Notes: generated by a model not told the origin, from the sequence alone. Shown: positions 4,370 to 6,788, numbered from the stretch's first letter. The stretch is 35,729 bases of DNA from Candidatus Falkowbacteria bacterium (GCA_037137655.1 JBAXJX010000002.1:1-35729); one strand, 5' to 3'. Numbers and translations: made by a program.

Positions 4370-4547
4370 ATAATAAAAAATAAATGATAATTAAGCTTAT
4401 ACAACAAAAGGGGGTTTTCCCCTTCCGTTGCCCGGGATCTTTGACCCAGAAATTTTCTGATCGAACTTCCGACCGCCTTGCCCAAATAATTCTATTCAAA
4501 CATTTTTTTGTTATATCAGTTTTAACAAAAAGCGACCAAAAGCCTTG

Positions 4548-4621
4548 AGGTTCGAGTGGGAGTCGAACCCACGAATGGCAGTTTTGCAAACTGCAGCGTT
4601 AGACCACTTCGCCATCGAACC
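4548..4621 (-). tRNA. tRNA-Cys(GCA)
   Basis: GGTTCGA/TCGAACC acceptor, GCAGT-TTGCAAA-ACTGC anticodon arm, GTGGG-TTCGACT-CCCAC T-arm, U73; CCA not encoded. Confidence 0.96.
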
Positions 4622-4718
4622 AATCGCTAACACAATATCTCCATATTACTATATTTTAAACATAAATCAAGAGGGGAAATAAAAAAGGAAGTCCAATATT
4701 TGAACTTCCATTTAATTT

Positions 4719-5111
4719 TTATAATCTAATTATTATTTCATTATTCGCAGAAAGAATAATTGTCGTATCTTTACCATTAACCATAATTGGGAACTTTTCC
4801 CCAATTTTATAGCCATAAAATCCAGAACTAGTATAAATTGAATATTGTTCATCGGACTTTTTATATTCTTTATAAAAGTCACCGTATTTCCCTACTTCAA
4901 AAAGTGAATAATATTGATTGTCGGATTTGGCTTTAAAAAAAATTACATATCCATCACTTGATGTGTTATTAATTTTTCCATAAAAAATAATTTTATTACT
5001 TTTATCAGAATTACTTGTGGTAGGTGTAATAGAATCATCTTTTTTACAAGAACTAAGTGATATTAATGTTATTGTTAACATTAAGCTTATTGATGTTGCT
5101 AACTTTTTCAT
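4719..5111 (-). CDS. Hypothetical lipoprotein
   Basis: Start reassigned to ATG 5111: MKK + hydrophobic stretch + lipobox LSS|C followed by KKDD. Confidence 0.7.
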   Translation of the reverse strand: MKKLATSISLMLTITLISLSSCKKDDSITPTTSNSDKSNKIIFYGKINNTSSDGYVIFFKAKSDNQYYSLFEVGKYGDFYKEYKKSDEQYSIYTSSGFYGYKIGEKFPIMVNGKDTTIILSANNEIIIRL

Positions 5112-5160
5112 GATATATAGATTTAAGTTTGAGTTGTTTAAGAGCTGATTTGATAATGAC

Positions 5161-5192
5161 AATTGTATCACGTTTTTAGCAAAAAGTCAACA
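5161..5192 (-). promoter_or_regulatory. Sigma70 promoter of the lipoprotein gene
   Basis: TTGACT-17 nt-TACAAT with extended -10 TG on the minus strand; near-identical copy at 31744-31775. Confidence 0.75.
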
Positions 5193-5356
5193 CATGGCGA
5201 AATAAGCTATTAAAGTCACAAAAGAAAGCGGAGTCTCAAGACGAAGCGAAATTATAAGAGAATAGATAATTAAAATTGACGTGACCAAAGCCTAAGAAGA
5301 CGGTTATTTTAATTTTTAGAAAAAATTTATTATCAAATGTACATAATATCAACAGT

Positions 5357-5424
5357 GGGGCTAGCGATGGCCGCGGGACGAACTTGACATTTGTCCTTTC
5401 GGGGTTCGATTCCCCGTAGCTCCA
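5357..5424 (+). ncRNA. Non-canonical tRNA-like RNA (Ala-type acceptor, UGA loop)
   Basis: GGGGCTA/TAGCTCC-A acceptor with G3.U70; GCG-ATGGC-CGC mini D-arm; 8-bp arm GGGACGAA-CTTGACA-TTTGTCCT; CGGGG-TTCGATT-CCCCG T-arm. Confidence 0.8.
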
Positions 5425-5441
5425 CAACGGCCAAAAACCCA

Positions 5442-5470
5442 TTGACTTTTTAAAAAATATGGCCTATACT
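5442..5470 (+). promoter_or_regulatory. Sigma70 promoter of a small RNA
   Basis: TTGACT (5442-5447)-17 nt-TATACT (5465-5470). Confidence 0.75.
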
Positions 5471-5476
5471 ATTATT

Positions 5477-5543
5477 GTCAAGTTCGTCTCTCAAACCAGA
5501 ATATCGCAAAGGAGAAAAAACCACCCGTCAAAGGTGGTTTTTT
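5477..5543 (+). ncRNA. Putative ~67-nt small RNA, 5' end antisense to the tRNA-like RNA
   Basis: Bounded by the promoter above and a terminator; 5476-5490 is complementary to 5375-5389. Confidence 0.6.
5515..5543. terminator. Bidirectional intrinsic terminator (sRNA / tsaD)
   Basis: AAAAAACCACC-CGTCAAA-GGTGGTTTTTT. Confidence 0.85.
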
Positions 5544-5557
5544 GTTTGTATATTATT

Positions 5558-6604
5558 TTAATCAAAAGAGATATTGCAATCCACCTTAAATTCATCCCAG
5601 GGCGTGAATTGTTTTTTAGCGTATTTGAAATAGCCGGCCGCGGCAATCATCGCCGCATTATCGGTTGTATAGGCCATGGCCGGAACACTAAAGGCCACTT
5701 CCGGTACTCTATCTATAATCGCGTCATTCATTTGGCGACGTAATTCGGAGTTAGCCGAAACACCGCCAGAGAGCATAATAGTTTTAACTTTATATTTTTT
5801 CGCCGCCTTAATCGTTTTACCAATTAAAGTTTCTAAAATTGCTTGTTGGTATTCATAACAATATTCCGGAATTCGTTTTTTCCAATTTTTATCTTTTTTC
5901 AATTGATAAAGCAAGGCGGTTTTTAAACCCGAAAAAGAAAAATTTAAATTTGGCGATGTTAACATCGGACGCGGTAAAACAATATCGGATTTTGGTGCTG
6001 TGCCATTGTTAGCTTTTAAATAATCATTAGCATAGCCCGCCACAATTGGTCCGCCTGGATAGCCAAGATCCATCATCTTCGCACCCTTATCATAAGCTTC
6101 GCCGGCCGCATCATCTAGAGTCTCGGCGATAATTTCATATTTTAAATAATCAGTCATTAATACCAAATTAGTGTGACCACCGGAAACGGTTAGAACTAAA
6201 GCTGGAAAATGAATTTTCTCTTTTGGTAAAATGAAGTTGGCACAAATATGGCCTTCGATATGATTAACAGTAATGAGTGGTTTTTTCCAGGCGCACGCCA
6301 AAACACGAGCGGTTTCTCCCCCGATGATAAGCGACGTTACTAGTCCAGGACCGGCCGTAACTGCTAGTGCGCTTAAATCCGCCGGCTTGATACCCGCTTT
6401 TTCAAGCGCCTCATTGACCACCGGGATCACATTTAAAACATGTTCCCTTGCAGCAACCTCTGGCACTACGCCGTAATATTTTTTATGGATTTCAATTTGA
6501 GACGAAATGACATTTGATAAGACGTTTAATTTCTTATCTTTAGCCACTAAAATTACACTGGCCGCCGTTTCATCACAACTGCTTTCAATTCCTAATATAT
6601 ACAT
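5558..6604 (-). CDS. tsaD: tRNA N6-adenosine threonylcarbamoyltransferase TsaD
   Basis: LGIESSCDET, GVVPEVAAREH, NHIEGH, VSGGHT, DDAAGEAYDK, FSFSGLKT, TDNAAMIA. Confidence 0.97.
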   Translation of the reverse strand: MYILGIESSCDETAASVILVAKDKKLNVLSNVISSQIEIHKKYYGVVPEVAAREHVLNVIPVVNEALEKAGIKPADLSALAVTAGPGLVTSLIIGGETARVLACAWKKPLITVNHIEGHICANFILPKEKIHFPALVLTVSGGHTNLVLMTDYLKYEIIAETLDDAAGEAYDKGAKMMDLGYPGGPIVAGYANDYLKANNGTAPKSDIVLPRPMLTSPNLNFSFSGLKTALLYQLKKDKNWKKRIPEYCYEYQQAILETLIGKTIKAAKKYKVKTIMLSGGVSANSELRRQMNDAIIDRVPEVAFSVPAMAYTTDNAAMIAAAGYFKYAKKQFTPWDEFKVDCNISFD

Positions 6605-6685: not shown

Positions 6686-6757
6686 GGTCTCTTCGTCTAA
6701 TGGTTAGGACACCAGGTTTTCATCCTGGTAACAGGGGTTCAATTCCCCTAGAGACTA
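6686..6757 (+). tRNA. tRNA-Glu(TTC)
   Basis: GGTCTCT/AGAGACT acceptor, CCAGG-TTTTCAT-CCTGG anticodon arm, AGGGG-TTCAATT-CCCCT T-arm; CCA not encoded. Confidence 0.96.
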
Positions 6758-6788
6758 CGAAATTATTATTTGTTCTTCTAAAAGAAAT

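Follow-up and report, generated by a model that had tools for sequence, protein, structure and literature searches.

The wobble pair G3.U70 is the major identity element for alanine. The available parts of two articles describe allo-tRNAs with unusual cloverleaves, in which G3:U70 leads to the insertion of alanine whatever the anticodon (PMC7609411, PMC5389517), and the pyrrolysine tRNA (tRNA-Pyl) of M. alvus, which has no nucleotide between acceptor and D stem, a small D loop and an elongated anticodon stem interrupted on its 3' side, yet is active (PMC7609411). Here we describe a 68-nt tRNA-like RNA of predicted alanine identity, hereafter called the mimic, and a predicted neighboring small RNA (sRNA) that is antisense to it, both encoded in a 35,729-nt stretch of DNA from Candidatus Falkowbacteria bacterium; this whole stretch is referred to as the window, and it belongs to a source genome of 1.04 Mb with 36% G+C in 13 contigs. 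As far as those article parts permit a comparison, the mimic shares with M. alvus tRNA-Pyl the missing acceptor–D connector and the extended anticodon-type stem, and it differs from both allo-tRNAs and tRNA-Pyl in its 7/5 branch (not 8/4 or 9/3), in an arm of 8-9 bp instead of 6, and in having C37. An antisense partner for either kind of tRNA is not mentioned in the available text of PMC7609411.

Members of the eukaryotic mascRNA/menRNA family are likewise short tRNA-like cloverleaves whose D arm is reduced, but the resemblance is one of shape only, and the mimic reaches 32 bits with the respective model, whose cut-off is 42.5. More features are shared with the tRNA-like domain of transfer-messenger RNA (tmRNA) and with the mitochondrial tmRNA of jakobids, which is reportedly reduced and devoid of the mRNA part: a G3.U70 alanine acceptor, a canonical T arm, and a closed helix in place of a decoding anticodon arm. 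tmRNA is not known to have a D stem. The mimic, in contrast, has a paired D stem, scores below the tmRNA cut-off and coexists with a normal tmRNA, and it is multi-copy, patchily distributed and accompanied by a dedicated antisense partner without a conserved tag frame.

On the side of the partner, the closest described systems are hok/sok, CopA/CopT and RNA I/RNA II, in which antisense control operates via U-turn (YUNR) recognition loops. The module described here resembles them in that a U-turn loop is the target, a free end is predicted to nucleate before pairing extends into a stem, and the two genes lie side by side, the stronger promoter belonging to the antisense gene. It differs in that the target is a predicted aminoacylatable tRNA mimic and not an mRNA or a replication primer, and as the two genes stand in tandem on one strand, their complementarity must be kept by co-evolution, not by overlapping transcription. 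In the type VIII toxin-antitoxin system CreT-CreA, toxin and antitoxin are both RNAs, and CreT sequesters a rare tRNA. If the reading that we favor below is true, the module would share with CreT-CreA that both components are RNAs, that the toxin hits translation via tRNA biology, and that pairing neutralizes it; it differs in having no CRISPR-Cas link, and its toxin would itself be a tRNA mimic, not a tRNA sink. None of the systems compared is known to unite a tRNA mimic of alanine identity and an antisense sRNA private to it. Neither mimic nor partner sRNA is in Rfam 15, and full-text literature on tRNA-like RNAs in the Candidate Phyla Radiation, Patescibacteria or Parcubacteria, or on tRNA-like RNAs as RNA toxins, contained nothing relevant within a coverage that leaves out most subscription journals.

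The mimic belongs to a structured RNA family with conserved alanine identity

The acceptor of the mimic (GGGGCUA/UAGCUCC, with the G3.U70 wobble) runs without a connector into a D stem of 3 bp (GCG/CGC) with the loop AUGGC; a long arm of 8 bp, two of them G.U, carries the loop CUUGACA, and the T arm is CGGGG-UUCGAUU-CCCCG (Table 1). A preliminary description of the locus had proposed this cloverleaf, and the sequence and RNAfold agree with it for acceptor, D stem, 8-bp arm, loop and T arm. The cloverleaf is both the minimum free energy (MFE) structure and the centroid at -29.4 kcal/mol, with z = -2.2 and 5 of 200 shuffles equal or better, a single-sequence statistic that by itself gives modest support, the comparative evidence being decisive. 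Features of a canonical tRNA that are present include the 7-bp acceptor, the 5-bp T stem with its UUCRAnY loop, and the GG in the D loop; the two-nucleotide connector at positions 8-9, a 5-bp anticodon stem, and a purine at position 37 are missing. CCA is not encoded (A73-C74 is followed by variable positions), as in the ordinary tRNA-Ala genes of the same genome.

Standard detectors pass the mimic by. ARAGORN called only a tRNA-Cys (4547-4621, minus strand) and a tRNA-Glu (6686-6758, plus strand) in the window, and at Rfam 15 gathering thresholds the same two tRNAs were the only hits there, the mimic lying below the gathering score of RF00005. In a permissive Rfam scan of positions 5200-5650, the top match was mascRNA-menRNA, with the score given above, and beyond it only the T arm matched, as fragments of tmRNA models (RF00023/RF04321) with 10.8 and 12.8 bits. 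Aligned to the whole tmRNA model, the mimic reaches 27.2 bits and spans both ends of the model, compared with a cut-off of 47 and with at most 18 bits for the ordinary tRNAs of the genome.

A BLAST search of the locus against relatives yielded seven similar elements, which were aligned and used for a first covariance model, R1. In the alignment of 8 homologues, 97.3% of the cells are paired and 10 of 23 base pairs show compensatory changes, a level reached by 0 of 500 shuffles; register-shift controls on the same alignment lower the pairing to 37-59%. A second model, R2, was built from 58 sequences, and its specificity is reduced: ordinary tRNAs score 42-53 bits, and R2 hits were therefore counted only at 54.8 bits or more and a length of 68-71 nt. 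The larger alignment comprises 59 distinct rows, which are 58 mimics and one ordinary tRNA-Glu. Here, 94.9% of the cells are paired, 19 of 23 pairs show compensatory changes, and pairing reaches 99% in the T stem and 99.3% in the acceptor. The earlier view that the helices are intact, unlike those of a decaying pseudogene, is thus borne out by covariation in 58 homologues, and the covariance-model searches returned covarying homologues where their absence would have spoken against a functional RNA. On this comparative evidence, the mimic is an intact and selected member of a conserved, often multi-copy family of structured RNAs.

The alanine-type acceptor, likewise proposed before, is a constant of this family. 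G3.U70 and the A73 discriminator are each present in 58 of 58 mimics, the tRNA-Glu being the sole row without the G.U pair. Positions 1:72 and 2:71 hold G-C pairs in 58 of the 59 rows, and the acceptor pairs 4:69, 6:67 and 7:66 covary freely while G3.U70 stays fixed. An invariant wobble pair among covarying neighbors points to selection for being recognized by alanyl-tRNA synthetase (AlaRS), and purifying selection on the alanine identity set of the mimic is supported by the alignment.

Loop sizes were read from the model-based alignment, single-sequence MFE folding being unreliable for them. Among the 58 order-level members, the loop heptamer is CUUAACA in 24, CUUGACA in 10 and UUUGACA in 6, the others being close variants; U33 occurs in 55, C37 in 57 and A38 in 56. 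The central triplet is UAA in 26, UGA in 22, UAG in 5, CGA in 3 and another in 2, and more distant members have UAU, CAU, UGU, UAC or UGG. The loop thus has the build of an anticodon loop with its U-turn, but with a pyrimidine at position 37 and a triplet that varies across the wider family. If the triplets were taken as anticodons, the commonest would match Leu UUA/UUG and Ser UCA; UUA accounts for 45% of the Leu codons and is the fifth most used codon of the source genome.

Two variants were seen in passing. One member of 89 nt (L082:954-1042) has an extra G+C-rich hairpin inserted after the T arm, ahead of the 3' acceptor strand, yet keeps a cognate sRNA (-32.0 kcal/mol). Loci of other families of the order (L072-L081) have a conserved GUGGAG 3-6 nt upstream of G1, in a predicted 5' leader; it complements the 3' end of the mimic, CUCCAC (69-74), and could mask the acceptor end before 5' processing.

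A cognate antisense sRNA is encoded next to the mimic

Positions 5377-5389 of the mimic and 5476-5488 downstream of it form a perfect inverted repeat of 13 nt (100% identity). The downstream copy lies at the predicted 5' end of an sRNA that begins about 51 nt downstream of the mimic and about 7 nt past a -10 box, and across loci the seed can be assigned to the 5' end of the sRNA because the -10 box ends 7-8 nt before it. In the 47 loci with a downstream partner, the sRNA promoters have on average 9.9 of 12 consensus matches (-35, 4.6/6; -10, 5.3/6), compared with 7.3 of 12 for the best upstream candidate of the mimic genes, which is without a real -35. For the window's mimic gene, the sequence likewise shows no -35 match, and a start 1-2 nt before G1 is predicted. 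The sRNA body, from seed to terminator stem, has a median length of 49 nt, and part of the seed, UGUYAAG, is conserved across paralogues. A frame that begins with GCN and is closed by a stop before the terminator occurs in 19 of 49 partner sRNAs at inconsistent positions, and the window's sRNA has no such frame.

Table 1. Predicted elements of the module and of the adjacent sequence (window coordinates)
Feature	Position	Strand	Remarks
Alanine-identity tRNA mimic, 68 nt	5357-5424	+	fold, covariation, 76.9 bits with covariance model R1
Mimic, acceptor 5' strand	5357-5363	+	
Mimic, D arm	5364-5374	+	
Mimic, long arm	5375-5397	+	loop CUUGACA at 5383-5389
Mimic, 2-nt linker	5398-5399	+	
Mimic, T arm	5400-5416	+	
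Mimic, acceptor 3' strand	5417-5423	+	
Mimic, A73	5424	+	
Putative -10 (CATAAT) of the mimic gene	5343-5348	+	weakly supported; the mean of 7.3/12 matches in 47 loci is near what picking the best of many scanned candidates yields
Target site on the mimic	5377-5389	+	5' strand of the arm and whole loop; perfect complement of 5476-5488
Near-consensus sigma-70 promoter of the partner sRNA	5442-5470	+	TTGACT, 17 nt, TATACT; 10/12 matches
Partner sRNA, ~73 nt	about 5476-5549	+	start predicted from the -10; seed 5476-5490 antisense to loop and arm
Second, weaker D-arm contact of the sRNA	about 5496-5507	+	
Bidirectional intrinsic terminator	5515-5549	+	A tract, stem-loop, T tract; ends the sRNA
Lipoprotein-like open reading frame (ORF), 150 aa	4719-5171	-	lipobox-like N-terminus; no Pfam family; weak PHROG match (E 1.7e-4)
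Two adjoining dispersed repeat units	about 5100-5218, 5204-5324		just upstream of the mimic

A strong complement to mimic positions 8-40 was found in a flank of 57 of the 58 loci, and at the lone locus without a partner the contig ends after 45 nt of flank. The partner flank averaged -33.6 kcal/mol in the 47 loci with a downstream and -32.7 in the 10 loci with an upstream partner, whereas the opposite flanks of the same loci averaged -19.0 or -17.8 kcal/mol. In a 57 x 57 matrix, cognate combinations average -33.3 +/- 5.2 and non-cognate combinations -16.1 +/- 4.9 kcal/mol, and the cognate sRNA is the best partner for 47 of the 57 mimics, with the caveat that each partner segment had been picked as the best duplex in its own flank before the comparison. 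Paralogues within one genome are mutually weak in crossed pairing and in this sense orthogonal, as illustrated by the two copies of the source genome, whose cognate pairs have -31.8 and -43.1 and whose crossed pairs have -21.4 and -15.5 kcal/mol. Neither the 13-mer of the window nor the 15-mer of the second copy has any other match in the 1.04-Mb genome at up to one mismatch.

The strand on which the complementarity acts can be read from its imperfections. Exact seeds were extended by a procedure that scores G.U and A.C alike, giving 922 positions in 53 pairs, and the non-Watson-Crick positions comprise 42 G.U, 16 A.C and 13 transversions (binomial p about 9e-4, with loci that are related to each other). 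That G.U outnumbers A.C in this strand-specific way points to pairing between RNAs of the plus strand, and it is unexpected for DNA inverted repeats or for transcripts of the other strand.

In at least 72% of the pairs, the predicted duplex spans mimic positions 8-34, and in 95-100% it includes positions 24-32. The region concerned comprises the D arm, the 5' side of the long arm and the loop, and the acceptor/T minihelix remains folded. The MFE of the dimer is -43.9 kcal/mol for the window pair, compared with -29.4 for the mimic and -3.0 for the sRNA alone; the values for the second copy are -56.2, -27.9 and -7.1 kcal/mol. According to these predictions, the acceptor/T half of the mimic resembles tRNA-Ala, and its lower half is a compact four-way junction with a 3-bp D stem, an 8-9-bp arm and the loop C/U-U-U-R-A-C-A; the sRNA is antisense with its first 13-19 nt to this loop and to the 5' side of the arm, and with a more internal part to the D arm. 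Each change in the arm is matched in the complementary part of the sRNA, so that the arm's 5' strand is constrained by two alternative partners, one within the mimic and one in the sRNA. At the level of sequence comparison, we regard this three-way covariation, the orthogonality of the pairs, and both predicted genes with their structures as demonstrated. The preliminary description had thus correctly recognized a selected tRNA-like RNA, but it had missed what is most informative here, the cognate antisense sRNA next door.

The module is patchily distributed, multi-copy and located at varied sites

In the family to which the window belongs, 126 of the matches listed for R1 score at least 43.4 bits, and the scores then drop to 38.2 bits, the level at which ordinary tRNAs of 72-75 nt set in. 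At E <=5e-9, 58 of 148 family genomes have a match, with up to 6 copies per genome. The second copy of the source genome (C1:480577-480646, L008/L105; 72.4 bits) has its own promoter and sRNA and is diverged, with the triplet UAA, a D loop without GG and the T loop UGCGAUU; its complement is perfect over 15-17 nt, and its sRNA combines a 17-nt seed with an 11/11 complement of the D arm. In the order outside this family, R1 found mimics in 9 of 132 genomes. In all 10 such loci that were inspected, the complementary unit precedes the mimic by about 100 nt and is complete with a consensus promoter and a terminator of its own; the mimic follows the sRNA unit with a -10-type promoter and a second terminator. 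Two independently transcribed units that occur in either order argue against a single folded transcript and against an artefact of overlapping transcription.

At class level, filtered R2 hits were found in 17 further genomes of 149; among the 19 hits inspected, a clear partner accompanies 14, another 3 are truncated or ambiguous, and 2 lack a partner, one of the latter being a 73-nt ordinary-looking tRNA. R1 also matched 6 of 150 genomes from other classes of the phylum. These 8 hits comprise 4 whose partner pairs at least as strongly as -32 kcal/mol, 3 with no partner nearby, and an ordinary tRNA-Ala. The genomes of the relatives have 0.5-1.8 Mb, which fits reduced, uncultivated lineages. Outside the phylum, a degenerate T-arm/acceptor pattern matched at least 122 loci, which are ordinary tRNA genes of other phyla; among the matches listed, 24 of 30 loci scanned with ARAGORN were tRNA-Ala, and none of the 80 of them scored with R1 exceeded 42.2 bits. 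At order level, no clear orphan mimic was seen, while orphan sRNA-like units exist. One locus (L254, G019:C2:126400-128400) is a tandem array of mimic, sRNA, orphan sRNA-like unit, mimic, sRNA, and promoter-plus-terminator unit, and between its orphan units and the genome's three mimics, pairing is only weak, at -17 to -24 kcal/mol.

Within 1.5 kb of the module, 30 loci showed neither a conserved protein neighbor nor a recombinase. The flanks are varied housekeeping genes: FemAB/YbeY, GT2 glycosyltransferases, LigA/GatC/GatA, RecJ/RNase H, RmlB/RmlD, split PPDK, KsgA and TsaD. Many of the family loci are syntenic orthologues (ligA-gatC seven times, GT2-GT2 five times, FemAB-ybeY and PPDK four times each). 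Of 37 loci that have ORFs on both sides, 28 show the module between two genes encoded on the other strand. In the window's family (L039-L068, L008, L069), this applies to 26 of 29 such loci; the neighbors are co-directional there, and the A/T-flanked terminator of the module faces the upstream gene. The bias fades outside this family, and many of the loci are syntenic.

At the window locus, the module is part of a lineage-specific insertion. The mimic is absent from the tsaD loci of 29 of 29 relatives, and in eight relatives that were inspected, tRNA-Cys follows tsaD within tens of nucleotides without a terminator between them. In the window, about 930 nt that are absent in the relatives separate tRNA-Cys and tsaD (stretch 4547-5557). 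Located there are, besides the mimic and its sRNA with the terminator, the 150-aa ORF and copies of a dispersed repeat. As the relatives have no terminator between tsaD and tRNA-Cys, the terminator must have arrived with the insertion, and it can also stop the convergent tsaD transcript.

The dispersed repeat gave 22 further BLAST hits at 75-93% identity on contigs C1, C2 and C3, one copy being located about 250 nt downstream of the second mimic copy on C1. In the DNA sequencing run, contig depth is 8-9-fold higher at these repeats, which look like an intergenic family of the miniature inverted-repeat transposable element (MITE) or repetitive extragenic palindrome (REP) type. A further peculiarity of the tRNA complement is an 87-nt tRNA-Trp (CCA) called by ARAGORN at C1:380890-380976, with the anticodon at position 39, in addition to a normal tRNA-Trp of 72 nt on C2; the longer gene may hold an insertion or an intron.

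Discussion

Our preferred explanation, held tentatively and with somewhat less than even confidence, is that the module is an antisense-controlled alanyl-tRNA mimic that forms an RNA-only addiction pair, similar to a toxin-antitoxin system. The stable, alanine-chargeable mimic would be the harmful partner, and the abundantly transcribed, unstructured sRNA its antidote. The free 5' end of the sRNA would nucleate on the U-turn loop of the mimic and then invade the arm and the D stem, unzipping the D/anticodon half of the L-shape while the acceptor/T minihelix stays intact; the duplex could either switch the mimic off or expose a long double strand to RNase III. The free mimic could do harm either by decoding Leu UUA or Ser UCA as alanine or through a block of AlaRS, of EF-Tu or of the A site on the ribosome. 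Transcription of the two genes, alanylation, the off-switch and toxicity are what we infer. The alanine identity would be a natural choice for such a toxin, because AlaRS ignores the anticodon and thereby leaves the arm free to co-evolve with the antidote.

Several features fit addiction: the patchy multi-copy spread, the mutual insulation of paralogues, the insertion at a new site and the existence of orphan sRNA-like units, as well as the consensus promoter on the presumed antidote and the compact, stable fold of the presumed toxin. As is expected of RNA-RNA toxin-antitoxin systems, the two RNA genes are adjacent and specifically complementary, and their distribution is accessory, patchy, multi-copy and insulated. 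In a more specific version of the addiction model, a mistranslating alanyl-tRNA mimic would be the toxin itself. Should transcription be shut off, a phage attack or the locus be lost, the labile sRNA would become exhausted; the stable mimic would then refold and be charged with alanine, and the charged mimic would read the abundant Leu UUA/UUG or the Ser UCA codons as alanine and poison the proteome. We consider this specific version unlikely. Misreading of Ser or Leu codons, raised for Ser UCA by the preliminary description, persists as one arm of the addiction model, but C37, found in 57 of 58 members, is unlike decoding tRNAs.

Some observations weigh against the addiction model in either form. 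C37 together with an arm of 8-9 bp is unlike decoding tRNAs, so that miscoding may be inefficient or absent; the activity of M. alvus tRNA-Pyl, as far as it is described in the available text on that tRNA, is a counterweight to this argument. The orthogonality of paralogues could also be the outcome of neutral compensatory drift. As many loci are syntenic, modules can persist vertically for long times, and the locus counts overstate the number of independent cases. Finally, 3 of 8 phylum-level and 2 of 19 class-level hits are without a partner within 200-300 nt.

The same pair of RNAs can be read without any toxicity. The mimic could be a regulated and beneficial carrier that provides alanine to a non-ribosomal acceptor (cell wall, lipid, or the tailing of stalled chains), its availability being tuned by the sRNA, and the conserved alanine identity, the minihelix left intact in the duplex, and the presence of a FemAB-family gene in the genome, with FemAB flanking the module in 4 of 30 loci, would all suit such a role. 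The distributions do not match, though: FemAB is found in 135 of 148 family genomes and the mimic in 58, one genus poor in mimics has FemAB in 21 of 21 genomes and a strong mimic hit in 0 of 21, and six genomes with a mimic gave no FemAB match, which disfavors the formerly suggested donation of alanine outside the ribosome in the form of a dedicated donor for cell-wall Fem enzymes. In the source genome, RqcH reached 17.4 bits, below the cut-off, and an aminoacyl-phosphatidylglycerol synthase domain was not found; up to 6 mutually orthogonal pairs would also be left unexplained, and we judge a carrier function to be rather unlikely. Conversely, the sRNA could be the effector, a regulator of mRNAs in trans for which the mimic serves as a dedicated sponge, decoy or stabilizing partner. 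The sRNA has the classic build for this, with a free 5' seed, a linker, an intrinsic terminator and the stronger of the two promoters, and it keeps the UGUYAAG part of its seed across paralogues. Yet the arm 13-mer and 15-mer have no second genomic match at up to one mismatch, in the window's family only the mimic covaries with the seed, and a sponge needs neither an invariant G3.U70 and A73 nor a canonical T arm, all of which makes this role quite improbable.

That the mimic is a minimal tmRNA-like rescue factor, a tRNA-like domain acting with SmpB and possibly with the sRNA as message in trans, would agree with the closed helix in place of the anticodon arm and with a tmRNA-model score that exceeds that of ordinary tRNAs and involves both model ends. 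The score is nevertheless below the cut-off of 47 bits, the mimic carries a D stem, and the genome has a normal tmRNA of 383 nt with a tag frame. No tag frame is possible in 68 nt, the frames in the partner sRNAs (19 of 49) are inconsistent and the window's sRNA has none, and the distribution is patchy and multi-copy, so that this suggestion of the preliminary description is now disfavored and we hold it to be very improbable. An incidental cloverleaf within a DNA-level feature, such as an invertible promoter switch or the ends of a small mobile element, might be suspected at the window locus, where the perfect 13-bp inverted repeat brackets an 86-bp segment (5390-5475) with a strong promoter and the module is an insertion. 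A length of 86 bp is very short for site-specific inversion. Four covarying cloverleaf helices, the strand-specific RNA signature of 42 G.U versus 16 A.C in the repeat arms, and the missing recombinase within 1.5 kb of 30 loci speak against this explanation, which we regard as highly implausible. A last alternative is a decaying tRNA-Ala pseudogene, or an att remnant of such a gene or of tmRNA. In its T arm together with the acceptor's 3' strand, the mimic does match ordinary tRNA-Ala genes of other phyla (24 of 30 among the matches listed), and descent from a tRNA-Ala is therefore likely. The genome encodes two tRNA-Ala (UGC, GGC) and a tRNA-Ser (UGA), and the acceptor stems and bodies of its tRNA-Ala and tmRNA differ from the mimic, so that an att remnant of these genes, considered earlier, finds no counterpart here. 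With all helices preserved and covarying among 58 homologues from many families, and with a conserved partner gene, the probability of such a remnant is negligible; as a present-day description, it is refuted by the family matches and the covariation.

Even without the toxin idea, the mimics represent a well-supported new family of structured RNAs with three-way covariation. If the pairing works as predicted, the module would be a natural strand-invasion switch for a chargeable tRNA mimic, and we found no description of such a control for tRNA-like RNAs. The pairs would then be ready-made orthogonal RNA switches on an AlaRS minihelix and may interest synthetic biology. On the same condition, the mimic and its sRNA would constitute a new class of RNA-RNA modules in the very small genomes of this uncultivated phylum, with up to six copies in about 1 Mb, and they would provide a direct handle on the long-standing question whether cells ever mistranslate deliberately, or employ tRNA mimicry, to attack or to restrain.

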